A stretch of DNA of 64,000 nt from an uncultured Candidatus Saccharibacteria bacterium (lineage in GTDB: Bacteria; Patescibacteriota; Minisyncoccia; Phycocordibacterales; UBA9973): contig CAZBZO010000005.1 in the NCBI GenBank assembly GCA_964496425.1, positions 10,015-74,014 of the forward strand, in the 5' to 3' direction. Below, piece by piece: positions 3,081 to 20,577 of this stretch. Every line of letters starts with the position of its first letter. Within the stretch, counting starts at the first letter, position 1. The notes beneath the pieces are model-generated. The model searched no databases and was not told the DNA's origin. It saw only the letters and a list, made by a program, of their open reading frames with translations. Both the position numbers and the translations under genes were made by a program.

Positions 3081-4385
3081 ATGAAAAATACTCACACTGT
3101 TGATGTTGTGCTCGGACTCCAATGGGGCGATGAAGGTAAGGGGAAAATCGTCGATGCGCTTGCTCGTGACTACGATCTCGTGGCGCGCTTTCAAGGTGGG
3201 CCGAACGCTGGGCATACGCTCGAATTTGATGGCAAACACATCGTCCTCCACACTATTCCGTCTGGAGTATTTGTTGGTGCGACCAACTTGATTGGTGCCA
3301 ATGTCGTGCTTGATCCAATAAGTTTTGTAGAGGAGCTTGCCCAGGTGGAGCCGCTCGTCAAAAATATTCGCGAGGTTCTCCTCATTGCCCGTGAAGTCAA
3401 CATTATTATTCCGACCCATAAAATTCTCGACAAGGCTGCAGAAGTGGCTAAAGGTGAAGCTAAAATCGGCACAACTTTGCGAGGAATCGGGCCGGCATAT
3501 ATGGATAAAACCGGCCGCAATGGACTTCGCATTGGATACATCAGCGCGCCTGACTTTGCTACTCGATACGAAATGCTTAAAACCAAACACTTGAAACTAC
3601 TCGAAGCTCAAGGGTTTCTTGTGGATGCGGAGCTACTTTCAAAAAACGAAAAGGAATTTTTTGAAGCTATTGAAGTCATTAAAACATTTACACTTGCTAA
3701 CTGCTCCACGTATATGAATACTGCAATTGATGCTGGTAAGAAAATTTTAGGTGAAGGAGCACAGGGAAGCATGCTTGATATCGATCATGGATTTGTCTAT
3801 CCATTTGTGACCTCGTCGAGCACGACGTCGGCTGGCATGTGTACTGGGCTTGGTATTGCACCGCAGAAAATCGGTCGTGTGATCGGCATTACCAAAGCCT
3901 ACTGCACTCGCGTGGGTTCTGGTCCGTTTCCAACAAAGCTCACTGATGAATGGGGAGAAAAATTAAGACAGATTGGCCATGAATTTGGTGCGACGACCGG
4001 CCGACCGCGCGACTGCGGCTGGATCGATCTGCCTGTCCTCAAAAAAGCAATTTTACTCTCTGGTGTGACCGAAATCGCTATTACCAAGCTCGACATTTTA
4101 GATACTTTTGAAGAGATCAAGGTTTGCACGGCCTACTCTATAGATGGAGTGGAAACGACCGAGCTGCCGTTTGACCCAAATCTTTCTGTTATGACGCCAG
4201 TTTATAAAACCTTCCCTGGTTGGCAGACGTCGATTAAAGCGGCGACATCGTATGAGGCATTGCCAGAGAATTTAAAAACATTTGTTTCGTATCTTGAAAC
4301 CGAGCTTGGTGTACGGGCGACGTATCTTTCTACGGGCCCTGAGCGGGAAGCGACCATTATTCGCAATCGTACTGAAGTGGCATGA
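3081..4385 (+). CDS. purA: Adenylosuccinate synthetase
   Basis: GDEGKGK P-loop, GPNAGHT, and the TTGRPR..GW motif. Start chosen at MKNTHTV (3081) for a 434-aa protein; the track ORF starts at 2982. Confidence 0.92.
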   Translation: MKNTHTVDVVLGLQWGDEGKGKIVDALARDYDLVARFQGGPNAGHTLEFDGKHIVLHTIPSGVFVGATNLIGANVVLDPISFVEELAQVEPLVKNIREVLLIAREVNIIIPTHKILDKAAEVAKGEAKIGTTLRGIGPAYMDKTGRNGLRIGYISAPDFATRYEMLKTKHLKLLEAQGFLVDAELLSKNEKEFFEAIEVIKTFTLANCSTYMNTAIDAGKKILGEGAQGSMLDIDHGFVYPFVTSSSTTSAGMCTGLGIAPQKIGRVIGITKAYCTRVGSGPFPTKLTDEWGEKLRQIGHEFGATTGRPRDCGWIDLPVLKKAILLSGVTEIAITKLDILDTFEEIKVCTAYSIDGVETTELPFDPNLSVMTPVYKTFPGWQTSIKAATSYEALPENLKTFVSYLETELGVRATYLSTGPEREATIIRNRTEVA

Positions 4386-7351
4386 TTTCGAGAATTGATA
4401 TTCTAACCATCGGTTCCGACGGACGAGCGCTCGTCAAAGAGAAATTATTTTCCAATGTTGTAGGGCGACCCTTAGCTGTCACTATACTCAACTCATATCT
4501 TATCGAAGCTTCACTTTCTGATTCAGCCCTTTCAAAAGTAGCCATACTACTCACCAACCCAGTCCTTGAAGAGGCATACGTAAATAAAAATCCGCTTAAA
4601 AATAAATTTTCATATGCGATTGAAATCGGATTTTTGCCAGGCGTAACAGATAATGTCGCAGCGACAGTCCGCGAGACGATCGAGGACGCTTTGAAGAGAA
4701 AATTTAAACCAAGTGAAGGAGTGTATACAAGCACAGTTTTTATTATTTCAGGTGTATTTTCGCAAGAGGATGTAGAAAAAATCGCTAGTGCACTCTACAA
4801 TCCACTGATTGAGCGTGCCAGTATTATTCCATATCAAGAATTTTCCAAAACAAAAAAGTTTCCTACTCGCGTGGCAAAAGTGAAGCTTCATGATACTGCG
4901 AGTGCTGACCGTGTCGATCTTGACGTGTCTGATGCTGAGCTTGCTCGTATCGGCAAAGAAGGCGTCGCCAACGCCGACGGGACGCGCCGCGGACCATTGG
5001 CGCTCGGACTTTCTGAAATGAAAGTAATCCAAGAATATTTTCGTGCCGCAAAACGTAAACCGACTGATATCGAACTTGAATCTTTAGCACAGACGTGGAG
5101 CGAGCACTGCAAGCATACGATTTTCGCTTCACCACTGGATGAAATAAAAGACGGACTGTATAAAACATATATCAAAGGTGCGACCAATCAAATCCGAAAG
5201 AAAAAAGGGAAGAGTGATTTCTGTGTCTCAGTATTTTCTGACAATTCAGGCGCCATAGTTTTCGATGAAAAATATTTGATCACGCACAAAGTCGAAACTC
5301 ACAATTCGCCATCAGCGCTCGATCCCTTTGGTGGAGCGATCACGGGTATTGTTGGGGTCAATCGCGATGCTATGGGATTTGGTCTGGGTGCTAAGCCGAT
5401 CGCTAACACGTATGGATTTTGTTTAGCTCTGCCTGCCGATACTCGGCCACTGTATCGCGATAGTGCTCTCACGCAAAAAATGTTGCCACCCGCGCGGATC
5501 ATGGAAGGTGTGATCAAAGGCATCAATGCTGGTGGCAATTGCTCCGGGATTCCGACACCTGACGGATTTGTATTTTTCGATGAACGTTATCGCGGCAAAC
5601 CCCTTGTATTTGCCGGTACCGTCGGACTGATTCCCCGAAAAATTCATGGTAAACGCTCAGATATCAAAAAAGCTAAAGCAGGAGACTTGATTGTAATGGT
5701 CGGGGGACGAGTCGGTGCCGATGGTATTCACGGCGCTACATTTTCTTCGGTGGAAATGGACTCTGGTTCTCCCGCTACCGCAGTCCAGATCGGAGACCCG
5801 ATCACTGAGAAAAAATTCTCCGATGCCTTAGTCAAAGAAGCTCGCGATCAAGAGCTCTACCATAGTATTACCGACAACGGTGCTGGCGGACTTTCTTGTT
5901 CGGTTGCGGAAATGGCAAAAGAATGTGGGGGAGCGATTGTTGATCTTGAAAAAGTACCACTGAAATATCCAGGGCTTGCGCCATGGGAGATTTGGATCTC
6001 CGAATCCCAAGAGCGCATGACGCTTGCGGTGCCGAAAAGTAAATGGAAAGCATTTAAGGCTCTCATGGATCGCCGTGGCGTGGAAGCAACAGCGATTGGC
6101 ACGTTTACTGCTTCCGGTTGTTGTGTTGTTAGCTATCAAAAAAAGAAAATCATGGATATTCCGCTCTCATTTCTGCATGACGGATTGCCTTTAAGGCATC
6201 TCGTGAGTAAAGAAGAGAAGAAGATACACCCTGAGCCGCCAAAGCAAAACAATTCATCACTTACTACTGTGCTTACTCATATGTTGGCGCGACCAAATAT
6301 TGCGAGTCGGGCATTTATAACCACGCAATACGATCATGAAGTTCAATCAGGATCGGTTGTGAAGCCATTGGTCGGAGCTGGTAGCGTCGATAACGACGGA
6401 GCAGTGATAAAGCCAGTACTTTCTTCTCGTCGTGGCGCCGTGCTTTCTCATGGCATAGTGCCGGTGTATTCGGACATCGATACCTATCATATGGGAGCAG
6501 CTGCTATTGATACAGCAGTGCGTAATGCCATCGCTCTTGGTGCGTCACTCGACTACCTCGCCATCCTCGACAATACTTGCTGGTGCAGTTCGGATGACCC
6601 TGTGCGGCTCTACGAGCTTAAACAGGCTATCAAAGCGTGCTATGACTATGCACTCATCTACGGCACGCCATATATCTCCGGCAAAGACAGTATGTTCAAC
6701 GATTTTAAAGGTTACGACGAAAAAGGTAGCCCGATAAAAATTTCTATTCCGCCAACACTTTTGATTTCATCTATCGGCGTGATAAAAGATATTCGAAAAG
6801 CTATTACCCTTGATCCAAAAATGCCGGGTGACTTAGTGTATCTCCTTGGCGAAACACATGACGAACTTGGCGCCTCGGAATACTTTGCGTTTATTTCAGA
6901 TATGGCTAAGAAAAAATATGTTGGCAACAATATTCCGGAAGTTGATGGTGTACGAAACAAAAAACTCTATCAATCATTTGAAAAAGCTGGAGCAAGTGGG
7001 CTAATTGCTTCAGCCATATCCGTCGGTCGGGGAGGGCTCGGTGTAGTGCTTTCAAAAATGGCGATTGCAAGTGGGCTAGGACTTGAAATTAGCCTGAAAG
7101 GTATCCCAGGCAAAGTATCGCAGAACGATTTTGCACTTTTCTCCGAATCCCAAGGTCGCATCGTGGTGACGATTGATCCGAAAAATAAGAAGAAATTTGA
7201 AGCACATTTCAAAGGCCAAGCGATTAAACTCATTGGGAAAGTACGAGCGGATAAAAAAGTGACGATAGCAGGCCTCTCAGGACGAAATACGGTTGATACT
7301 ACGGTTTCCGCACTCGATCAGGCATACAAAAAAACTTTCAAGAATTACTAA
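4382..7351 (+). CDS. purL: Phosphoribosylformylglycinamidine synthase subunit PurL with a ~190-aa N-terminal extension (possibly a fused PurS-like domain)
   Basis: 989 aa. The SEHCKH motif and AIR-synthase-related domains are present. ATGA overlap with the purA stop. No separate purS ORF in the cluster. Confidence 0.9.
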   Translation: MISRIDILTIGSDGRALVKEKLFSNVVGRPLAVTILNSYLIEASLSDSALSKVAILLTNPVLEEAYVNKNPLKNKFSYAIEIGFLPGVTDNVAATVRETIEDALKRKFKPSEGVYTSTVFIISGVFSQEDVEKIASALYNPLIERASIIPYQEFSKTKKFPTRVAKVKLHDTASADRVDLDVSDAELARIGKEGVANADGTRRGPLALGLSEMKVIQEYFRAAKRKPTDIELESLAQTWSEHCKHTIFASPLDEIKDGLYKTYIKGATNQIRKKKGKSDFCVSVFSDNSGAIVFDEKYLITHKVETHNSPSALDPFGGAITGIVGVNRDAMGFGLGAKPIANTYGFCLALPADTRPLYRDSALTQKMLPPARIMEGVIKGINAGGNCSGIPTPDGFVFFDERYRGKPLVFAGTVGLIPRKIHGKRSDIKKAKAGDLIVMVGGRVGADGIHGATFSSVEMDSGSPATAVQIGDPITEKKFSDALVKEARDQELYHSITDNGAGGLSCSVAEMAKECGGAIVDLEKVPLKYPGLAPWEIWISESQERMTLAVPKSKWKAFKALMDRRGVEATAIGTFTASGCCVVSYQKKKIMDIPLSFLHDGLPLRHLVSKEEKKIHPEPPKQNNSSLTTVLTHMLARPNIASRAFITTQYDHEVQSGSVVKPLVGAGSVDNDGAVIKPVLSSRRGAVLSHGIVPVYSDIDTYHMGAAAIDTAVRNAIALGASLDYLAILDNTCWCSSDDPVRLYELKQAIKACYDYALIYGTPYISGKDSMFNDFKGYDEKGSPIKISIPPTLLISSIGVIKDIRKAITLDPKMPGDLVYLLGETHDELGASEYFAFISDMAKKKYVGNNIPEVDGVRNKKLYQSFEKAGASGLIASAISVGRGGLGVVLSKMAIASGLGLEISLKGIPGKVSQNDFALFSESQGRIVVTIDPKNKKKFEAHFKGQAIKLIGKVRADKKVTIAGLSGRNTVDTTVSALDQAYKKTFKNY

Positions 7352-7352
7352 T

Positions 7353-9104
7353 ATGGAAACTCGTACCTGTCAAAACTGCAAATCTGATTTTTCAGTTGAA
7401 TCAGATGATTTTGCATTTTATGAAAAAATCAAAGTTCCTCCGCCGACGTTTTGTCTGCTGTGTAGATATAAGCGACGTATTATTTGGCGCAATGTCCGAC
7501 ATTTATTTCGAGGTATAGATGCAATAACAAAAAAAGAGATATTTACGGGGATTCCTCCCGAAGCCAATCATACTTTATACGAGCAGTCATATTGGAATAG
7601 TGATAATTGGGATCCTTTGGATTATGGAAAGGAATATGATTTTTCTACTCCTTTTTTCCAACAATTGCACGATCTGTATTATTCGGTTCCGTGTCCAGCA
7701 AAATCTATGCAGCGATGTATCAATTCGGATTATTCGAATCAATGCGACGATATGAAGAACACGTATCTTTGTTTTAACGCTACTTTTATGGAAGATAGCG
7801 CATATTGTTGCAATGGAAGTGTTTTGAAAAACTGTTTTGATCTCACAAGTTGTTATAACAGTGAATTTTGTTACGACAATGTCCGGGTGGACAAAAGTTA
7901 CCACACAATAGGATCTATTACGTGCGAGAGTTGTGTTGATGTATGGTTCTCAAAAAATTGCATAGGATGTACTGATTGTTTTGGGTGTGTAAATCAACGA
8001 AATGCGACATATCGAATTTACAACAAACAATATTCCAAAGAAGATTATTTCGAAAAAATTAAATCTTTGAATCTTAATACGTGGTTAGGTTTTTCTGCTG
8101 CGCAAAAACAAGCTGAAGATTTTTGGAATACATTTCCCCTTAAATACATGCTAGGATTTCGGAACCAGGATGTATTAGGTGAAGATATTAAAGATAGTAA
8201 GAATGTAAAATACTCTTATATTGTCCAACGGGGCGAGAATTTAAAATACGTTCAAGATGTCCCATTTGGTGGTGCCAGCAATTCATATGATTATACATCG
8301 TGGGGAGTGAGCGCATCTCAACTCTATGAATGTATGGTTTGTGGTGAACAAGTGGATAAGCTGAAATTTTGTTTTGAATGTTGGCCAGGTTGTCAAGAAC
8401 TTGAATACTGTATCCATGTACGTCGTTCAAAAAATTGTTTTGGCTGCGTCGGGGTGAAAGATAAACAATATTGCATTTTCAATGTTCAGTATTCTAAAGA
8501 AGAATATGAAAAGCTCGTTCTAAAAATAAAAGAGCATATGGATCAAATGCCATATAAAGATAAAAGAGGTAACACATATACATATGGTGAATTTTTCCCG
8601 AGTGAATTTTCTCCTTTTTCCTACAATCAAACACTTCTCAATGATCAATTTCCATCTACTAAGAAGGGTACTGAAGAAGAAGGATTTCTCTGGCGCGATA
8701 CTCTCGGTCGGGAGTATGAAACCACAATGAAAGCAGGAGATCTTCCAGAGAGAATTTTAGACGTAGGAGAGGATATCACCAAAGAACTTATTGCTTGTGT
8801 TTCTTGTAGTAAGGCGTATCGGATTATTGCAAATGAATTTCAATTTCTTAAAAATCTTTCCTTGCCACTTCCACGAATGTGTGTAGACTGTAGGTTCGCA
8901 CGGCGTCAAACGTTTATGGTGCCGCCGGTTTTGCATGAAGAAACATGTCACTGCGGCGGGTCTCGCTCGATAAATCAAGAATACCAAAATACCGAAATAC
9001 ATTTTCATGGCGCCGGCAAATGTCCCAATACTTTCCAAACAGCGTATGATCCAGAGAAAGAGATAATTTATTGCGAAGATTGTTATAAGAAAGAAGTATT
9101 TTAA
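7353..9104 (+). CDS. Cysteine-rich protein, paralogue A (N- and C-terminal CxxC zinc-ribbon-like motifs; internal duplicated CFGCVG..KQYCIFN.QYSKEEYE repeat); function unknown
   Basis: 583 aa from METRTCQNCK, more than 40 Cys in CxxC knuckles. Start 1 nt after the purL stop. Homologous along its length to the 10878-12590 ORF. Confidence 0.8.
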   Translation: METRTCQNCKSDFSVESDDFAFYEKIKVPPPTFCLLCRYKRRIIWRNVRHLFRGIDAITKKEIFTGIPPEANHTLYEQSYWNSDNWDPLDYGKEYDFSTPFFQQLHDLYYSVPCPAKSMQRCINSDYSNQCDDMKNTYLCFNATFMEDSAYCCNGSVLKNCFDLTSCYNSEFCYDNVRVDKSYHTIGSITCESCVDVWFSKNCIGCTDCFGCVNQRNATYRIYNKQYSKEDYFEKIKSLNLNTWLGFSAAQKQAEDFWNTFPLKYMLGFRNQDVLGEDIKDSKNVKYSYIVQRGENLKYVQDVPFGGASNSYDYTSWGVSASQLYECMVCGEQVDKLKFCFECWPGCQELEYCIHVRRSKNCFGCVGVKDKQYCIFNVQYSKEEYEKLVLKIKEHMDQMPYKDKRGNTYTYGEFFPSEFSPFSYNQTLLNDQFPSTKKGTEEEGFLWRDTLGREYETTMKAGDLPERILDVGEDITKELIACVSCSKAYRIIANEFQFLKNLSLPLPRMCVDCRFARRQTFMVPPVLHEETCHCGGSRSINQEYQNTEIHFHGAGKCPNTFQTAYDPEKEIIYCEDCYKKEVF

Positions 9105-9105
9105 T

Positions 9106-10881
9106 ATGGAATCTAAAGTAGAAACAACCAAAACAGAACATTTTTCTTGGCTCGATGTGCCGAAGGCGATTTGGTATTTTCTTGATAAAGATAAAGCGAA
9201 ATTTGGCGTTTTCTTTTTTATTTTACTCGGTATTTTTTTCTACGATCTCGTACCTGTATATATTGTAGGAAAGATCGTTGATTTTTTTACTGCGTATACA
9301 CCAGGGCAATCTCTCAATTTGTTCTACTTCTATTCCTTTTTTGTTGGCTCTACGTGGATACTTGCCGCAATAATTCGCAATTATGCAAAAAATAGAATAA
9401 TGAGAATAGGTCAACATGCTCGATCAAATGCACGGATATGGGGGTTTGAGCGTCTTACAGAATTTTCACTTGAATGGCACAACAAGGAAAATACTGGCAA
9501 TAAACTTCAGCGAATTTTCACGGGCTCAGATGCGATTTACGAATTGATGAAAATAATACGAAGCAGATTGTTAAAAATTGCTTCAAGTATCGTGGGGGTA
9601 TTGGCGGTTTTCGTTTTTACAGATATAAAATTTGTCGTGCTAGTTTTTATATATAGTGCTGTATATTTATATGCTGAGTTTATTATCAGTAAGAGAATTT
9701 TTAGATTGAGTAATGAATTTAATACTCTAAATCAGTCAGCAAGTGGAACATACATGGAAAGTGCAGGCAACATACTCTCAGTGAAAGCGCTCGGTGGAGA
9801 GAGCGGTATCGTCAATCGTGTAATGAATAGAGAAATTCTTTCGAGGAACATTTCTATAAAAAAACTCAATGCGAACAGTTTTAAATGGCGAGTCTTAAAC
9901 GTTATTAGCGGCGCTGCGATCGGAGTATTCTTATTAATGACAGGATTTTCTGTACTTTCATCAGCGTTGACTTTAGGAATGGTTCTTGTGTTTTACACTT
10001 ATTTCTCAAAACTCGGTGAATCATTGGCAGATATGAGCGATTTACATTCTGACATGCTAGACGTGCGGTCAAATTTGGCACATATGATGCCGATATTTCG
10101 TGAGACGGAATTTATTAAAACCGGTAATGAAAGTTTCCCAGAATATTGGAATGCGATCAAGATAAATAACATTTCGATGGATTATGGATCAGGCCAGCAT
10201 GGACTCAAGGATTTTAGTTTAGAAATCGCACGTAATTCTAAAGTGGGCATTGCTGGGACCTCCGGCTCGGGTAAGTCGACGCTTGCGAAAATTATTTTGG
10301 GACTCTATAAAATCAAATCGGGTGGAATTCATGTAGGTGAGAGGGATTATTATGATATTTCCCACAACGACATGCTCGATCATATTACTGTTGTCCTCCA
10401 AGAAACCGAGCTTTTTAATCTTTCACTTCGCGAAAACATTACTATGATGCGGACCGAAAATAGCGAGCTTTTAAATCGTGCTGTAGAAATCTCCGAGCTC
10501 GGCGCGGTGATCGACCGTTTGCCTGAAGGTCTCGATGCCAAAATCGGGGAGAAGGGCTACATGCTCTCCGGCGGCGAACGCCAACGCCTCGGTATTGCTC
10601 GAGCGATTTATAAAAATGCCCCGATTATTCTCCTTGACGAAGCCACCTCAGCGCTTGATAGTGAGACTGAAGGCAAGATCATGGCAAAGCTTTTGGGTGA
10701 GTATGGCAAGGATAAGACATTTGTTATTATTGCTCACAGGCTAGGTACATTACGCTACACGGACCGCATTGCCGTGGTAGCCGATGGCAGCGTGGTGGAA
10801 GAGGGGAATTACACCGAACTCATGAGTAAACCGAAGTCATATTTTTCTCGGATGAATCAAGAGAAAAGTCAGAATATATGA
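9106..10881 (+). CDS. ABC transporter, fused permease/ATPase (type-I exporter half-transporter)
   Basis: N-terminal 6-TM domain, Walker A GTSGSGKST, signature LSGGERQRLGIARA, Walker B ILLDEATSALD. No C39 peptidase domain. Confidence 0.9.
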   Translation: MESKVETTKTEHFSWLDVPKAIWYFLDKDKAKFGVFFFILLGIFFYDLVPVYIVGKIVDFFTAYTPGQSLNLFYFYSFFVGSTWILAAIIRNYAKNRIMRIGQHARSNARIWGFERLTEFSLEWHNKENTGNKLQRIFTGSDAIYELMKIIRSRLLKIASSIVGVLAVFVFTDIKFVVLVFIYSAVYLYAEFIISKRIFRLSNEFNTLNQSASGTYMESAGNILSVKALGGESGIVNRVMNREILSRNISIKKLNANSFKWRVLNVISGAAIGVFLLMTGFSVLSSALTLGMVLVFYTYFSKLGESLADMSDLHSDMLDVRSNLAHMMPIFRETEFIKTGNESFPEYWNAIKINNISMDYGSGQHGLKDFSLEIARNSKVGIAGTSGSGKSTLAKIILGLYKIKSGGIHVGERDYYDISHNDMLDHITVVLQETELFNLSLRENITMMRTENSELLNRAVEISELGAVIDRLPEGLDAKIGEKGYMLSGGERQRLGIARAIYKNAPIILLDEATSALDSETEGKIMAKLLGEYGKDKTFVIIAHRLGTLRYTDRIAVVADGSVVEEGNYTELMSKPKSYFSRMNQEKSQNI

Positions 10882-12590
10882 AGAAAGAAACGAAACAATG
10901 TAAGAATTGCGCAAAAGATTTCACTATAGAGTCGGATGACTTTGATTTTTATGAAAAGGTAAAGGTTCCGCCGCCAACGTTTTGTCCGGAGTGTCGCATG
11001 ATCCGCAGATTTCAGCTTCGCAACGAACGCACCTGGCATCGTCGTGTCTGTGATGCGACTGGCAAACCTCTGCTTTCTATGTTTGCATCTGATGTGCCAT
11101 ACAAAGTCTATGAGCTCAATTATTGGAAGAGTGATGCCTGGGATCCGATGGAATATGGGCACGTCTATGACTCGTCGCGCTCCTTTTTTGCCCAATTCGA
11201 CGAGCTCATGCGTGCGGTGCCGCATGCCAACTTGATTCAGAAAAACAACGCCAATAGTGACTATTCAAATGCGACGCTCAATGCCAAGAATTGTTACTAT
11301 TGTTCAAGTCTTGATACGGGGGAGGATTGCAGTTATTGCTTTACTGGCAACATTCGTATAAAAAATTGCCTTGACCTGCATCAATCTATCGATGACGAAT
11401 TCTCGTATGAGCTTGTGGATTGCCTCAAATGCAACCGGCTTTTATTTGGACAAAATTGCGAAGGATGCGTAGATTCGATGTTTTTGTATGATTGTCGCAA
11501 CTGCACCAATTGTTTCGGTTGTGTGGGACTTCGCAATAAACAGTACTGTATATGGAATGAGCAGCATTCGCGTGAGGACTATCTTGAGCAAATGAAACAG
11601 CTGCGAGCGGGAAGCTATCAGACTCTACTCGCGGCTAAAGAAAAATTTGAAGAACTGAAGCTCCGGGTGCCGCGAAAATTTGCTGTCATTCAAAAAGCTG
11701 AGAATGTTTCCGGTGACGATATTTTAAATGCTCGCAACTGCCACCAATGCTTCGTCGTGCGAAATAGCGTAGAGAACTTAAAGTACTGCTATCGTGTCTG
11801 GGAAAACTCTAAAGATATTTGGGATGGGTTTGTGGCCTGGCGTGGATCAGAAATGATGTACGAAGTAGTGAGCTGTACTGGTCAGCGTATTTATTTCTCC
11901 GCCTATATTTGGGGCGGCAATGACATTTTTTATTCGTACAATTGTTTCGATTGCAACAATATCTTTGGCTGTGTCGGTCTCCGAAGCAAATCGTACTGCA
12001 TTTTTAATACCCAATACTCGAAAGAAGAGTATGAAGTATTGATAGCGCAAATCATTGAAAAAATGAAAATAGATGGTGAGTACGGAGAATTTTTCCCTGC
12101 AAGCATTTCGCCCTTCGCGTACAATGAAACAGTAGCACAGGATTATTTTCCCAAAATCAAAGATGATGCACAGGCGAGTGGGTATCGATGGCGAGACGCG
12201 GAAGAAAAAAACTACAATGTTACGATGAAAAGCGAGGCGATCCCAGACGGTATCGCCGAAGCAAGCGACGATATTTTAAAAGAAGTGATCGAATGCGCAC
12301 ACCAAGGAGTATGTAGCGAACAATGCGCGACGGCGTTTCGTCTTACCTCTGACGAGCTCGTTTTTTACCGTACCATGAAACTTCCACTCCCACGACTCTG
12401 TCCGTCATGTCGCCACTATGGTCGGGTCAAGCTCAAAAATCCGCTTCGGCTTTGGAATCGCACCTGTACGTGCGAGCGGGATACTCATACTCACTCGGGA
12501 CCTTGTTCCAATACATTTCAAACGCCGTATTCACCGGAGCGCTCGGAGATGATATATTGCGAAGAATGTTACAATGCGGAAATAGTTTAA
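10878..12590 (+). CDS. Cysteine-rich protein, paralogue B (same architecture as 7353-9104)
   Basis: 570 aa. MKKETKQCKNCAKDFTIESDDFDFYEKVKVPPPTFCPEC matches the paralogue A N-terminus. 4-nt overlap with the ABC gene stop. Confidence 0.8.
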   Translation: MKKETKQCKNCAKDFTIESDDFDFYEKVKVPPPTFCPECRMIRRFQLRNERTWHRRVCDATGKPLLSMFASDVPYKVYELNYWKSDAWDPMEYGHVYDSSRSFFAQFDELMRAVPHANLIQKNNANSDYSNATLNAKNCYYCSSLDTGEDCSYCFTGNIRIKNCLDLHQSIDDEFSYELVDCLKCNRLLFGQNCEGCVDSMFLYDCRNCTNCFGCVGLRNKQYCIWNEQHSREDYLEQMKQLRAGSYQTLLAAKEKFEELKLRVPRKFAVIQKAENVSGDDILNARNCHQCFVVRNSVENLKYCYRVWENSKDIWDGFVAWRGSEMMYEVVSCTGQRIYFSAYIWGGNDIFYSYNCFDCNNIFGCVGLRSKSYCIFNTQYSKEEYEVLIAQIIEKMKIDGEYGEFFPASISPFAYNETVAQDYFPKIKDDAQASGYRWRDAEEKNYNVTMKSEAIPDGIAEASDDILKEVIECAHQGVCSEQCATAFRLTSDELVFYRTMKLPLPRLCPSCRHYGRVKLKNPLRLWNRTCTCERDTHTHSGPCSNTFQTPYSPERSEMIYCEECYNAEIV

Positions 12591-12605
12591 ATAGTAAGTA
12601 GAAAA

Positions 12606-13403
12606 ATGCAAACAAAAGGCAAAAAGCAACGAATAAAACCAAAAGTCATCGTCATGTCTGGCTACGGGCTCAACTGCGAAGAAGAGACCAAGTACGCTTT
12701 CGAATGGGCTGGCGCGGTGGCTGACATCGTCCATATCAATGACCTGATCGACGGACGCAAAAAGCTCAAGGGCTATCAGATCTTAGCGGTACCAGGTGGA
12801 TTTTCGTACGGTGACGACACAGGGTCTGGCAAAGCCTATGCCAATAAAATGAAAAATCACCTCATGGATGATCTAGAGAATTTTATTGCTCGCGATACGC
12901 TCATGATCGGTATATGCAATGGCTTTCAAGTGCTCACCTCAGCTGGCTTTCTACCTGGCGCGCTGACCTACAATGAAAGTGCGCGATATATCGACCGTTG
13001 GGTAGATCTCAAAATCGAAAATCAAAGAAGTCCCTGGCTCTCTGGCATTACCACGCTTTCCGTACCTATTGCTCATGGTGAAGGTAAATATATTTTTGAT
13101 GCAAAGATAAAAAAAGAACTTGAGCGTGATAATAGTATCGCACTTCGCTATACCAAAGGCGACATGTGTAAGTATCAAAATTTACAAGCCAATCCAAATG
13201 GTGCTATGGAAGACATAGCAGGCGTGACGGCAAAAAATGGTAGAATACTCGGCATGATGCCGCACCCAGAACGAGCCATGTTTTCTCATCAATTGCCAAA
13301 CTTTTCGCTTGAAAAAGAAAAAGCCAAGCGTGCCGGAAAAGAAATTCCCGAAGAAGGACCAGGACTCCAGATTTTTAGAAACGCTATAAAATATTTTCAA
13401 TAA
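12606..13403 (+). CDS. purQ: Phosphoribosylformylglycinamidine synthase glutaminase subunit
   Basis: Class-I glutamine amidotransferase features: GICNGFQ nucleophile elbow and a PHPER-containing C-terminus. Confidence 0.88.
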   Translation: MQTKGKKQRIKPKVIVMSGYGLNCEEETKYAFEWAGAVADIVHINDLIDGRKKLKGYQILAVPGGFSYGDDTGSGKAYANKMKNHLMDDLENFIARDTLMIGICNGFQVLTSAGFLPGALTYNESARYIDRWVDLKIENQRSPWLSGITTLSVPIAHGEGKYIFDAKIKKELERDNSIALRYTKGDMCKYQNLQANPNGAMEDIAGVTAKNGRILGMMPHPERAMFSHQLPNFSLEKEKAKRAGKEIPEEGPGLQIFRNAIKYFQ

Positions 13404-13406
13404 TAT

Positions 13407-14846
13407 ATGCACGACCTTACAGAAAAATGCGGTATTTTCGGCATCTATGGTCGCGACATGGATGTGTCACGCTTGGCCTTCTTCGGCCTCTTTGCGCTCC
13501 AGCATCGCGGACAAGAAAGTTCGGGTATGTCGGTCGGCGATGGCGAAAAAATAATTTCCTATCGTGGTGCAGGACTTGTGTCAGCAGTGTATAACGAGCA
13601 AAACCTAAAACGCCTGCAAGGGCATATTGCCATCGGCCACAATCGTTACTCGACCTCTGGTGCATCGGTCCTCTGTCATTCTCAGCCGATCGCGATCGGA
13701 GAAACATTTGATTTTCAAAATGAGATGCGTGAGGGAAGTATCGGCGGCTTAGTCGCTTTTGCTCACAATGGCAACTTGCCATCAGTCACGGCGCTTACAG
13801 AGTTTTTGAAAGACAAAGGTGTTTTGCTTGATGAACGTTCGGACTCTGAACTTATGGCCGAAGCGATTTTGTATTATGTAAAAAATGGCAAAAGCCTGCC
13901 GGAAGCTATGCGCGAAGCCTATCCGCTTTTTACCGGAGCATTTTCGCTGGTGGTAGCAACCAAAGATACTTTAGTCGCTGTGCGTGATAGCTGTGGTATT
14001 CGTCCGCTTTCGCTTGGGAAACTCAACGGCGGTCATATCGTAGCATCGGAGACCTGCGCATTTAAAACGATTGGTGCGGAGTTTGTACGTGATATTTTGC
14101 CAGGTGAAATGGTAGTGATTGACGATACAGGCGTACAGTCGATCCAGATCGTTCCGCCAAACCCTAAGCTTGATATTTTTGAATTTGTCTATTTCGCCCG
14201 AGCGGACAGTACAATTGACGGACAGTTGGTCTATGAAGTCCGTAAGCGCTGTGGGGAAGAGTTGGCACGAGAATATCATATTGAGGCTGATATCGTGATC
14301 CCAATCCCAGAGACGGCTATACCGGTCGCTATCGGCTACGCCAATGTCTCCAAAATCCCGATTGAAATGGCACTGGTGAAAAACCGTTACGTGCATCGAA
14401 CCTTTATCGAGCCGGAACAACACTCACGCGATCTCGGCGTGAAGCTCAAACTCGTGCCCTTGCCTGAAATGATCACTGACAAGCGTGTGGTGGTCATGGA
14501 CGACTCTATTGTGCGTGGTACAACTTCACGACAGATCGTGGCAATGCTCTTTGAAGCTGGAGCCAAAGAAGTACATTTTCTGATCAGCTCGCCGCCGGTC
14601 CGCTTCCCAGACTTTTATGGTATCAATACGCCTGATCAAAAAGATCTGATCGCTTCGCAAAAAACCGTGGAAGAAATCCGCGAATACCTCGGCGCCACCT
14701 CGCTTGGCTATTTGTCACTCGACGGCCTCGTGAAATCCACGGGTCTCCCGAAAGATCACTTTTCAATGTCGTGCTTTACCGGTGAGTATCCGATCGATCT
14801 CCACGAGCGCGCACACGATTTCTCGCACGATGTGCCAAAAAATTAA
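13407..14846 (+). CDS. purF: Amidophosphoribosyltransferase
   Basis: Ntn nucleophile at MHDLTEKCGIFGI. C-terminal phosphoribosyltransferase motif VVMDDSIVRGTT. Confidence 0.93.
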   Translation: MHDLTEKCGIFGIYGRDMDVSRLAFFGLFALQHRGQESSGMSVGDGEKIISYRGAGLVSAVYNEQNLKRLQGHIAIGHNRYSTSGASVLCHSQPIAIGETFDFQNEMREGSIGGLVAFAHNGNLPSVTALTEFLKDKGVLLDERSDSELMAEAILYYVKNGKSLPEAMREAYPLFTGAFSLVVATKDTLVAVRDSCGIRPLSLGKLNGGHIVASETCAFKTIGAEFVRDILPGEMVVIDDTGVQSIQIVPPNPKLDIFEFVYFARADSTIDGQLVYEVRKRCGEELAREYHIEADIVIPIPETAIPVAIGYANVSKIPIEMALVKNRYVHRTFIEPEQHSRDLGVKLKLVPLPEMITDKRVVVMDDSIVRGTTSRQIVAMLFEAGAKEVHFLISSPPVRFPDFYGINTPDQKDLIASQKTVEEIREYLGATSLGYLSLDGLVKSTGLPKDHFSMSCFTGEYPIDLHERAHDFSHDVPKN

Positions 14847-14861
14847 TTTTACATAAAAAAA

Positions 14862-14897
14862 GGGCGGTCTGATAATTCAGACCGCCCTTTCAATTTT
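14862..14897. terminator. Rho-independent terminator (GGGCGGTCTGA-TAAT-TCAGACCGCCC then T-run)
   Basis: Perfect 11-bp GC-rich stem followed by TTTCAATTTTTAATT. Lies between the convergent purF (+) and the downstream minus-strand genes. Confidence 0.8.
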
Positions 14898-15447: not shown

Positions 15448-16158
15448 TTAATGCTCGTGGGGAATAAGTATCAAAATTGCCGAGAGAAGAATAGCTCCAA
15501 CGACAAATCCCCAAATGGTATTTTGGGTCCATTTCGTATGGCGAATGTCGGTACTCACTTTCCAAGAAATGATTCCGGCTGAAAGCGCAATGAGAATACT
15601 TTCAAGTGCCGCTCCATTTTTCAGGAAAAGTGCTAAGAGTACGCTTAAAGAAACAAAAAATGAAATGAAAAGTGCACGCTTTGGCTTGATACCGCTATCC
15701 ACCAGGAGTACTTGCTGTCCGCTTTGTTGGACCATTTGATGACCGATGATGCCGGCAAGGGAGGTCAGTCCCACTCCGATACTAAAACCAAATCCCGAAA
15801 TGATAGCGATACCGTCGACGATATTGTGGAGGAAATCAGAAAGAAGGATCCGCCAGGTACTGGCTTTGGTGTGATGATGTTTTCCCTCGGCACTTTCGTG
15901 GTGGTGGTGGAATTCTTTGAAATACACGCCGATCAAAATACTTATGATGAGCCCGGCAAGCGCCCAGAGGGAAGCAGGAAGTACGCCACGTTGCTCAATG
16001 GCTTCCCGGAGAAGTAAAATAACGAGCGTCGCATAGACACCGAGACCAAAGCCGCGGACTGCGCTTTTTTGGAAAAATTCTCGATTGCGAGGCAAAAGCA
16101 ACACCAAAGCCATTGGTACCAGTGCCGCAGCAAGTAAATATAAAATAATATGTGTCAC
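15448..16158 (-). CDS. zupT: ZIP-family metal (zinc) transporter
   Basis: Eight-TM topology, His-rich loop HHHHESAEGKHHH, and conserved HNIVDGIAI and GHQ motifs of the ZIP family. Confidence 0.8.
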   Translation of the reverse strand: MTHIILYLLAAALVPMALVLLLPRNREFFQKSAVRGFGLGVYATLVILLLREAIEQRGVLPASLWALAGLIISILIGVYFKEFHHHHESAEGKHHHTKASTWRILLSDFLHNIVDGIAIISGFGFSIGVGLTSLAGIIGHQMVQQSGQQVLLVDSGIKPKRALFISFFVSLSVLLALFLKNGAALESILIALSAGIISWKVSTDIRHTKWTQNTIWGFVVGAILLSAILILIPHEH

Positions 16159-20214: not shown

Positions 20215-20577
20215 ATGATAGAAGATCAAAACACGCAAAAGAAATACGATCTTGATGAGCGAACTTTTATTTTTGCGAAAGATGTGAGAGAGTTTGCTAG
20301 AACATTACCAAGAGATATATATGTTATAGATGACATAAAACAGTTTATTCGATCCTCAGGATCAGTCGGGGCAAATTATATTGAAGCAAGCGAAGCATTC
20401 AGTAAGAAAGATTTTTTAATGAGAATAAAAATTTGTCGAAAAGAAGCAAAAGAAACTTGTTATTGGCTGAAACTCCTAGAGATCACAGATGCTTCACTTT
20501 CGAATAATCGTGATAGATTATTACAAGAAGCAACTGAGCTTATGAAAATTTTTGGTTCAATCGTTTCAAAAAGTTGA
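20215..20577 (+). CDS. Four-helix-bundle protein of the 23S rRNA intervening-sequence protein family
   Basis: 120 aa. Characteristic SGSVGANYIEA..SKKDFLMRIKICRKEAKETCYWLKLL pattern. Confidence 0.75.
   Translation: MIEDQNTQKKYDLDERTFIFAKDVREFARTLPRDIYVIDDIKQFIRSSGSVGANYIEASEAFSKKDFLMRIKICRKEAKETCYWLKLLEITDASLSNNRDRLLQEATELMKIFGSIVSKS

Follow-up and report, generated by a model that had tools for sequence, protein, structure and literature searches.

What are two cysteine-rich proteins and an ATP-binding cassette (ABC) exporter doing between purL and purQ, the genes for the two subunits of formylglycinamidine ribonucleotide (FGAM) synthase? The question is posed by a stretch of 64,000 nucleotides from contig CAZBZO010000005.1 (hereafter the window, whose numbering is used for all positions), which belongs to a genome of the Paceibacteria/'Parcubacteria'-type Patescibacteria and in which three genes, here called CysA, the ABC exporter gene and CysB, form a cassette within a purine-biosynthesis cluster. 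A large part of bacterial diversity lies in the Patescibacteria (the Candidate Phyla Radiation), whose genomes are of ~1 Mb and whose dependence on hosts is mostly unexplained. CysA and CysB belong to a large family, referred to below as CYS, and the trio appears, from comparative gene order, to be a displaced fragment of a dnaK-VirD4-ABC-CYS-VirD4-dnaJ cluster. As a tentative answer, we propose that CYS proteins are clients of an ATP-driven translocation machine.

The exporter provides the firmest entry to this cluster. We assembled exporter loci from three look-ups and from 57 metagenome loci, retrieved with the transmembrane domain, and counted adjacency for orthologues that scored at least 700 bits and had at least 1.8 kb of sequence on both sides. 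Orthologues of the exporter form a tight group in Patescibacteria (59-68% identical), and a CYS gene lay within 5 kb of 17 of the 18 orthologous exporters and directly next to 13 of them, with the stop codon of the ABC gene and the start codon of the CYS gene overlapping by 4-17 nt in 8 loci. Distant ABC homologues (score <640) had no CYS neighbour in four out of five loci. The link was kept after rearrangement, both in the window, where the surroundings are a pur operon, and in three other loci (L105, L121 and L130, L numbers being our locus handles), and different CYS subfamilies flank the exporter in these cases. The exporter-CYS link is real but asymmetric: it is seen from the exporter's side and not from that of the family, since an exporter orthologue was present in none of 80 CYS-centred loci drawn from species-representative genomes. 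A reading of the window made without database searches (the sequence-only reading) had described a 'fixed' association of the cysteine-rich pair with the exporter, in an A-B-A' sandwich. Our neighbourhood survey found that homologues do co-occur with an ABC exporter elsewhere and that the association is non-random, so that this part stands, but it is not fixed when counted from the family side, and the sandwich is not a general arrangement, CYS genes standing on both sides of the exporter in only 5 of the 22 loci with both flanks.

The exporter loci show a recurrent order, in which a long VirD4-like gene (VD4L) is followed by a CYS gene (in some loci), the ABC gene, one to four copies of CYS and a short VirD4-like gene (VD4S). 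Clustering of all neighbouring genes gave the full canonical locus, which reads CYS, CYS / PaaX-like (- strand) / dnaK, VD4L, CYS (in some loci), ABC, CYS, VD4S, dnaJ, a gene for a 192-aa protein / cysS (- strand), AI-2E (- strand). The nearest relatives of CysA (44-51% identity) either adjoined VirD4-like genes or occupied the site between VD4L and ABC, and those of CysB (54-64% identity) stood in arrays without an exporter. The sequence-only reading was right to link the cysteine-rich proteins with the exporter; absent from it were two soluble VirD4/TraG-like ATPases, which are partners of a more general kind, and the dnaK-dnaJ position. Two further features of these loci were recorded. The cysS (cysteinyl-tRNA synthetase) and AI-2E family transporter genes lay downstream of dnaJ, on the - strand, in L103, L104, L109, L113, L123, L124, L127 and others, and a small gene pair, encoding DUF5674 (~116 aa) and an unannotated protein of ~96 aa, occurred within the cluster in 6-7 loci (L097, L098, L111, L113, L114, L121), where it follows directly on the ABC gene or the subsequent CYS gene.

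VirD4-like genes were the most recurrent neighbours of CYS arrays, being present in 29-30 of the 80 loci centred on the family and in 21 of the 26 centred on the exporter. Four VirD4-like proteins were tested against Pfam; all exceeded the TrwB_AAD_bind and T4SS-DNA_transf cut-offs, and three also exceeded that of TraG-D_C. VD4L has, in addition, a bona fide zf_Tbcl_2 finger (E = 1e-14) and an extended Pro-rich tail. For a common set of seven genome pairs, median identity was 87% for VD4S, 79% for DnaK, 76% for DnaJ, 73% for VD4L and 67% for the ABC exporter (the VD4S genes noted for conservation are those of L088, L098, L104, L109, L113, L124 and L127), and conservation above DnaK is unusual for a coupling-protein homologue. 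Searches against PADLOC gave weak matches of the VirD4-like proteins to HerA and mad8, and for the exporter and the VirD4-like proteins taken together only generic P-loop matches (mad3, mad8, HerA). A 2025 survey reported 5,713 VirD4-type homologues in 2,918 Patescibacteria genomes, just 148 of them near virB4 (PMC12102498); its authors gave no explanation of their role and allowed that they might be 'exapted for other functions' (PMC12102498).

As for the exporter itself, Pfam detected only ABC_membrane (residues 36-302) and ABC_tran (residues 367-515), which agrees with the earlier description of a type-I ABC exporter of 591 aa that has no peptidase domain. The transmembrane domain is encoded by nt 9106-10110 and the nucleotide-binding domain by nt 10111-10881; the protein starts ~30 residues before the first transmembrane helix, and its motifs are intact (Walker A at nt 10255, signature at 10564, Walker B at 10624, H-loop at 10729, and the Q-loop too). 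All NCBIfam matches fell below their cut-offs. The best was MsbA, which failed with both models (TIGR02203, 271 bits against a cut-off of 602; NF008381, 223 against 867), and the cut-offs for HlyB and for peptidase-containing ABC transporters (PCAT) were likewise missed (TIGR01846, 227 bits against 726; TIGR01193, 223 against 524; TIGR03796, 233 against 853).

CysA and CysB are paralogues, 39% identical from end to end (E = 2e-136), and score 701 and 938 bits, respectively, with the hidden Markov model of the family. Both this paralogy and the zinc-ribbon-like character of their N and C termini, borne out by conserved terminal cysteine quartets, had been proposed from the window alone. Each protein has 37 cysteines (6.3-6.5% of residues), fewer than the more than 40 that had been claimed, and the CxxC motifs number 12 in CysA and 13 in CysB. 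In confident AlphaFold2 models (predicted local distance difference test, pLDDT, 88.2 for CysA and 87.5 for CysB; predicted template modelling score, pTM, 0.88 for both), an N-terminal zinc-ribbon hairpin pair with helices is followed by a beta-solenoid, a helical linker and a second, more variable solenoid, and then by a helical/loop domain, a repeat of the N-terminal ribbon and a treble-clef-like finger at the end. The N-terminal module of CysA is homologous to its own C-terminal module, as seen in the second high-scoring segment pair of the CysA/CysB alignment. A hydropathy scan of both proteins (no dedicated signal-peptide predictor was run) found no hydrophobic segment suited to a signal peptide or membrane anchor, in line with the earlier view that they lack signal peptides and are, by sequence, cytoplasmic. 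That view had also left the two proteins without a family, and profile, PDB and Foldseek searches did not supply one. Against Pfam, NCBIfam, PADLOC and PHROGs, CysA and CysB matched no family and gave only sub-threshold treble-clef matches at the extreme C-terminus (for CysB, over residues 543-567, 15.8 bits against a cut-off of 27 for zf_Tbcl_2, PF23477, and 16.5 against 36 for TIGR04272); single-sequence and profile searches of PDB sequences found no relative, and Foldseek with the whole protein found no significant match. When 69 family members were scanned at E < 0.1, zf_Tbcl_2 was found in 15 and zf_Tbcl in 22.

The family itself is large. A word-indexed search from CysB returned more than 7,349 matches, all of them unnamed or 'hypothetical', and the named sources were all Patescibacteria (Paceibacterota, Liptonbacteria, Staskawiczbacteria, Nomurabacteria and others). 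Clusters at 50% identity gave 5,015 representatives at E <= 1e-3 and 2,231 at E <= 1e-30. Lengths are uniform (~430-610 aa), with no domain fusions among the top 150 representatives, all of which fall within 430-610 aa. At least two CYS paralogues occurred within 10 kb either side in 52 of the 80 family-centred loci, where CYS members account for 210 of 1,219 genes; the largest tandem array comprised 9 genes, and one array can fill 15-17 kb. Single CYS genes were also found tightly inside unrelated housekeeping operons, namely after murG, in a mur-ligase cluster and beside nrdAB. Just downstream of a CYS gene in two loci (L002, 10107-12137; L027, 12089-14119) lies a gene for a 676-aa secreted Cys-rich repeat protein with 37 cysteines, a signal peptide and C-x3-C-x7-C units; considered as a possible CYS relative, it was set aside as an unrelated secreted repeat protein. 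In a related genome, a gene for VKOR (vitamin K epoxide reductase-type disulfide oxidoreductase; L001, 928-1347) lies 7 kb from a CYS pair, and extracytoplasmic disulfide formation therefore exists in these bacteria.

How the cysteines are conserved separates the ends of the protein from its middle. Among 255 distinct members the median cysteine count is 34, and the terminal positions are nearly invariant (CysB numbering; C8, C11, C36 and C39 present in 97-99%, C473 in 98%, and C530, C543, C561 and C564 in 97-98%). C61, C79 and C82 co-occur with r = 0.98-1.0, and C483, C508 and C511 with r = 0.90-0.95. The terminal quartets are kept or lost as sets, which is the signature of predicted Zn(Cys)4 sites. 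Because the solenoid cysteines come and go singly and are replaced by Ser, Val, Leu, Ile or Thr, we take them to be interior ladder residues, neither obligate disulfide partners nor ligands. A disulfide ladder in the solenoids was rejected on the same single gain and loss, a signal that the alignment register in the variable solenoid could blur. The earlier account of the cysteines needs correction here too: only ~12-16 of them belong to terminal zinc-type quartets, and the others line the beta-solenoids. Column entropy was 1.3-1.6 bits at the termini and 2.3-2.9 bits in the solenoids, and was also lowest at the two NCFGCVG...YCI.N.QYSKEEY caps.

We then asked whether the cassette came to lie in the purine operon by insertion and whether it is maintained there. 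Because purL adjoins purQ in two relatives (L150 and L151, PurQ ~70% identical), with a gap of 1-3 nt and nothing in between, the CysA-ABC-CysB segment is a true, lineage-specific insertion in the purL-purQ junction. In the closest relative found (L149, PurQ 87% identical), a CysB orthologue (85-87% aa identity) lies directly upstream of purQ; together these three loci uphold the splice between purL and purQ that had been suggested before. The ratio of non-synonymous to synonymous substitution rates (dN/dS), computed against the L149 orthologues, was 0.048 for CysB, 0.098 for purQ and 0.025 for purF, and the value for CysB shows purifying selection, so that the inserted gene is functional. GC content at third codon positions (GC3) is 0.295 in CysA and 0.337 in the transmembrane half of the ABC gene (window 7353-10110 for the two), and it rises to 0.467 in the nucleotide-binding domain and 0.469 in CysB, the neighbouring pur genes having 0.40-0.50, a pattern that would place a breakpoint in composition within the ABC gene. 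A chimeric exporter was considered as the cause of the step; when its N-terminal and C-terminal halves were compared with 119 homologues, no clear sign of a donor emerged. A mobile element was rejected as well, there being no flanking repeats beyond the CysA/CysB homology and no strong internal terminators.

Translocation ATPases that recognise their substrates include both ABC exporters and type IV coupling proteins. Because the partners of the CYS genes are of these kinds and CYS is the sole candidate client encoded alongside, we favour, tentatively, a translocation model in which CYS proteins are the cargo itself or interchangeable cargo-presenting adaptors, and the apparatus would consist of the exporter together with the soluble coupling ATPases of VirD4 type. 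Docking would fall to the conserved zinc-finger termini, which would serve as handles, and specificity to the surface of the variable solenoid, a constant handle and a variable surface being proposed because entropy is low at the ends and high in the solenoids. DnaK and DnaJ would keep the CYS clients translocation-competent. The finger of VD4L, apparently of the same treble-clef type as the CYS ends, fits the docking-handle view, and conservation of VD4S above DnaK would be expected of a hub that recognises many partners. The exporter-CYS linkage and its survival of rearrangement, the recurrence of VirD4-like genes beside CYS arrays, purifying selection on CysB and the many VirD4-type homologues away from virB4 (PMC12102498) also speak for the model. 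The data establish gene content, paralogy, fold class, family size, gene-order statistics, insertion and purifying selection; contact between the parts, the substrate, the direction of transport and metal binding are inferred. In a more far-reaching version, which seems to us rather unlikely, CYS proteins would be the missing client set of the orphan VirD4-type ATPases of Patescibacteria and would form, with the exporter and under the dnaK operon, an unrecognised ATP-driven system that delivers proteins to the cell surface or into host cells; if that were true, delivery of zinc-finger-capped beta-solenoid proteins would be at the core of the episymbiotic lifestyle across the radiation.

Several observations weigh against translocation. 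The exporter orthologue is missing from all 80 CYS-centred loci, whose ABC genes are unrelated to it (<180 bits), and six exporter loci (L091, L093, L099, L100, L107 and L129) have no CYS gene on the available exporter flank. The 64-kb window holds no VirD4-like gene, no dnaK and no dnaJ. When the neighbours in 26 exporter loci were clustered, only CYS, VirD4-like, DnaK, DnaJ, PaaX-like, CysS and AI-2E proteins and small unknowns recurred (no HlyD-type search was made). The N-terminal membrane anchor of true coupling proteins was not found by hydropathy scan in four VirD4-like representatives, the Pfam scan of the exporter found no C39 peptidase or C39-like domain, whose apparent lack weighs on the model, and a Zn-ribbon protein folded in the cytoplasm would be unusual cargo for export. 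Physical contact between CYS, exporter and VirD4-like proteins is a prediction from gene order, and the extreme degree to which the ATPases are conserved, like their place in the dnaK operon, would suit a housekeeping role inside the cell just as well.

One such role, close to what the sequence-only reading had suggested, would be metal, thiol or redox quality control, in which CYS proteins act as cytosolic Zn/Fe buffers or as Hsp33-like redox-switch holdases with DnaK and DnaJ, and the exporter expels metal, thiol or peptide by-products. The gain and loss of whole terminal quartets, as for Zn(Cys)4, would agree with this, as would the location of the canonical cluster inside the dnaK-dnaJ operon, the lack of an export signal in CYS proteins by hydropathy scan, and several metal-related genes nearby: a ZIP zinc transporter in the window (15448-16158), CutA1 beside the CYS array of L003, and cysS by the canonical cluster. 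We still consider this unlikely, given that the ~20 solenoid cysteines per protein vary singly and behave as packing residues, that dozens of diverged 570-aa paralogues would be a costly metal buffer for a ~1-Mb genome, that family and PDB searches turned up no metallothionein, Hsp33 or Fe-S scaffold homologue, and that no CydDC subfamily model fits the exporter (no specific test was made for Atm1- and HMT-type exporters). The genes might also share no function, an ordinary lipid or drug exporter having become a neighbour of CYS genes through their abundance, through synteny inherited within one class and through compact co-directional genomes. What makes this distinctly unlikely in our eyes is that 17 exporter loci in 18 with CYS at <5 kb are far above background, the window having 2 CYS genes per 64 kb, that the adjacency outlasts independent rearrangements involving different CYS subfamilies, that stop-start overlaps recur, and that four of the five loci with distant ABC homologues are without CYS neighbours; it would nonetheless account for the high share of CYS genes in the family-centred loci (210 of 1,219), for their tight placement in the murG, mur-ligase and nrd operons, for MsbA as the exporter's best NCBIfam match and for the absence of the exporter from the CYS-centred loci.

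Tandem, diversifying paralogue arrays with constant ends, together with the weak PADLOC matches of the VirD4-like proteins to HerA and mad8, are what a conflict or defence system might also present, with variable solenoids sensing invader molecules and HerA/VirD4-like ATPases and the exporter as effector or abortive parts. Yet CYS proteins match nothing in PADLOC or PHROGs, the scans found no nuclease or toxin domain, the cluster is fixed in a housekeeping operon, and VD4S is conserved above DnaK, the opposite of typical defence islands, so we regard a defence role as very unlikely. Still more improbable, to the point that we give it hardly any weight, is a selfish or mobile gene family that inserts at operon junctions and relies on host transcription. 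Its insertions would be the exact ones between conserved operon genes (purL/purQ here, after murG or murC elsewhere), and the low GC3 (0.30-0.34) of CysA and of the ABC transmembrane half could be taken as its trace, but no terminal inverted or direct repeats surround the cassette, no transposase, recombinase or nuclease domain was found, the paralogues are old (35-65% identity) rather than recent copies, and the inserted CysB, with a dN/dS of ~0.05, is shared with a sister species.

Returning to the translocation model, two known kinds of system invite comparison. The Bartonella virD4-bep locus consists of a type IV coupling protein and a tandem effector array. Like it, the CYS loci place VirD4-family ATPase genes by tandem paralogues that have no Sec signal and combine a conserved terminal module with a variable remainder. 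Unlike it, the CYS-linked ATPases lack a membrane anchor and come as a long/short pair of which the short form is more conserved than DnaK, the ABC exporter lies between the two ATPases, the window itself has no VirD4-like gene, and VirD4-type homologues of Patescibacteria are hardly ever near virB4 (PMC12102498). With HlyB/PCAT systems the locus has in common a half-transporter made of transmembrane and nucleotide-binding domains whose gene overlaps that of a candidate client without signal peptide; it differs in that the exporter has no C39 or C39-like domain and stays far below the family cut-offs, in that the candidate client is Cys-rich and zinc-finger-capped, without repeats-in-toxin (RTX) repeats or a double-glycine (GG) leader, and in that no membrane-fusion or outer-membrane partner is among the recurrent neighbour families (neither was searched for specifically). 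At the level of domains, the terminal CxxC...CxxC modules of CYS proteins resemble zf_Tbcl (PF13451), zf_Tbcl_2 (PF23477) and TIGR04272 (CxxC-x17-CxxC), but their scores with these models are all sub-threshold and the models span ~35 of 570 residues. The solenoids are alike in fold class only (identity 7-13%) to curli-like CsgA (8c50), insect antifreeze proteins (1m8n, 1ezg) and left-handed beta-helix acyltransferases; those Cys-laddered or compact solenoids are extracellular or enzymatic, and the CYS cysteines do not form obligate disulfide pairs. No description of the CYS family or of the cluster was found in the literature searched, where only the paper on orphan coupling proteins is relevant (PMC12102498). 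The family and its gene-cluster association thus appear to be new, and every function proposed for them here is deduced from sequence. The link between CYS, VirD4-like and ABC genes offers a testable candidate for a lineage-specific export or host-interaction machine, or for an essential intracellular machine. It also offers a way into thousands of proteins annotated only as 'hypothetical protein'.

The features of the locus are listed below. By the open reading frame listing and by direct reading, purL, CysA, the ABC gene, CysB and purQ are co-directional and lie head to tail. The TAA stop codon of purL (7349-7351) is separated by 1 nt from the CysA ATG at 7353, and the stop codon of CysA (9102-9104) by 1 nt from the ATG of the ABC gene at 9106; the TGA stop codon of the ABC gene (10879-10881) shares 4 nt (ATGA) with the CysB ATG at 10878, and 15 nt separate the CysB stop codon (12588-12590) from the purQ ATG at 12606. 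The first three junctions are the same as those given in the sequence-only reading. An identical 10-mer, TAATATGGAA, comprising a stop codon, one base and ATG-GAA, occurs at the purL/CysA (7349-7358) and CysA/ABC (9102-9111) junctions.

Features of the purL-purQ region of the window (Cys numbering is that of the protein named)
Feature	Position (nt)	Strand	Remarks
purL (FGAM synthase large subunit, 989 aa)	4382..7351	+	upstream border of insertion
CysA (583 aa, 37 Cys, CYS family)	7353..9104	+	paralogue of CysB
CysA N-terminal zinc-ribbon module (C6, C9, C34, C37), then Arg-rich helix	7353..7487	+	Cys invariant; in the model, beta-hairpin pair and helices
CysA central region, two beta-solenoid modules with helical linker between	7701..8486	+	each ends in NCFGCVG..K.Y.I.N.QYSKE[DE]Y cap
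CysA C-terminal zinc modules (predicted), ribbon copy (LPLPRMCVDCR) and treble-clef-like finger (IYCEDCY)	8784..9104	+	quartets covary
ABC exporter half-transporter (591 aa, 0 Cys)	9106..10881	+	ABC_membrane and ABC_tran
CysB (570 aa, 37 Cys, CYS family)	10878..12590	+	start codon overlaps ABC stop codon
CysB N-terminal zinc-ribbon module (C8, C11, C36, C39)	10878..11018	+	invariant in first alignment; 97-99% of 255 members
CysB central region, two beta-solenoid modules with Cys/Ser interior ladders	11232..12011	+	most variable part of the family
CysB C-terminal zinc modules (predicted; C473, C483, C508, C511; C530, C543, C561, C564)	12288..12590	+	Cys conservation
purQ (FGAM synthase glutaminase subunit)	12606..13403	+	downstream border of insertion
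Terminator-like hairpin after purF	14858..14891	both (bidirectional)	14-15 pairs, 8 G-C

PurL was identified by TIGR01736 (E = 1.4e-154) and by Pfam AIRS, AIRS_C and FGAR-AT_linker, and PurQ by GATase_5 (E = 3.7e-75) and by a TIGR01737 score that exceeds the cut-off; guaB, purA, purF, purN, purD and purK complete the purine-biosynthesis cluster around the cassette. Because no strong (14-15-pair) terminator-like hairpin other than the one after purF follows the cassette on the + strand, and the + strand from 4382 to 14846 has just two short 6-pair terminator-like matches, the cassette is probably co-transcribed with the pur genes. In PurL, ~200 residues precede the FGAR-AT linker (window 4382-4990, residues 1-200), the relatives having 980-982 aa against 989 aa here, and residues 1-200 may be a fused PurS-like region. 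A gene for a ZIP-family zinc transporter (15448-16158, - strand) lies within the purine cluster, ~3 kb downstream of the cassette and on the strand opposite to it, with a perfect -35/-10 promoter-like site at 15418-15390. Farther downstream, between sugar nucleotidyltransferase and epimerase genes, the window encodes a 23S rRNA intervening-sequence protein (PF05635; ~20215-20577, + strand).

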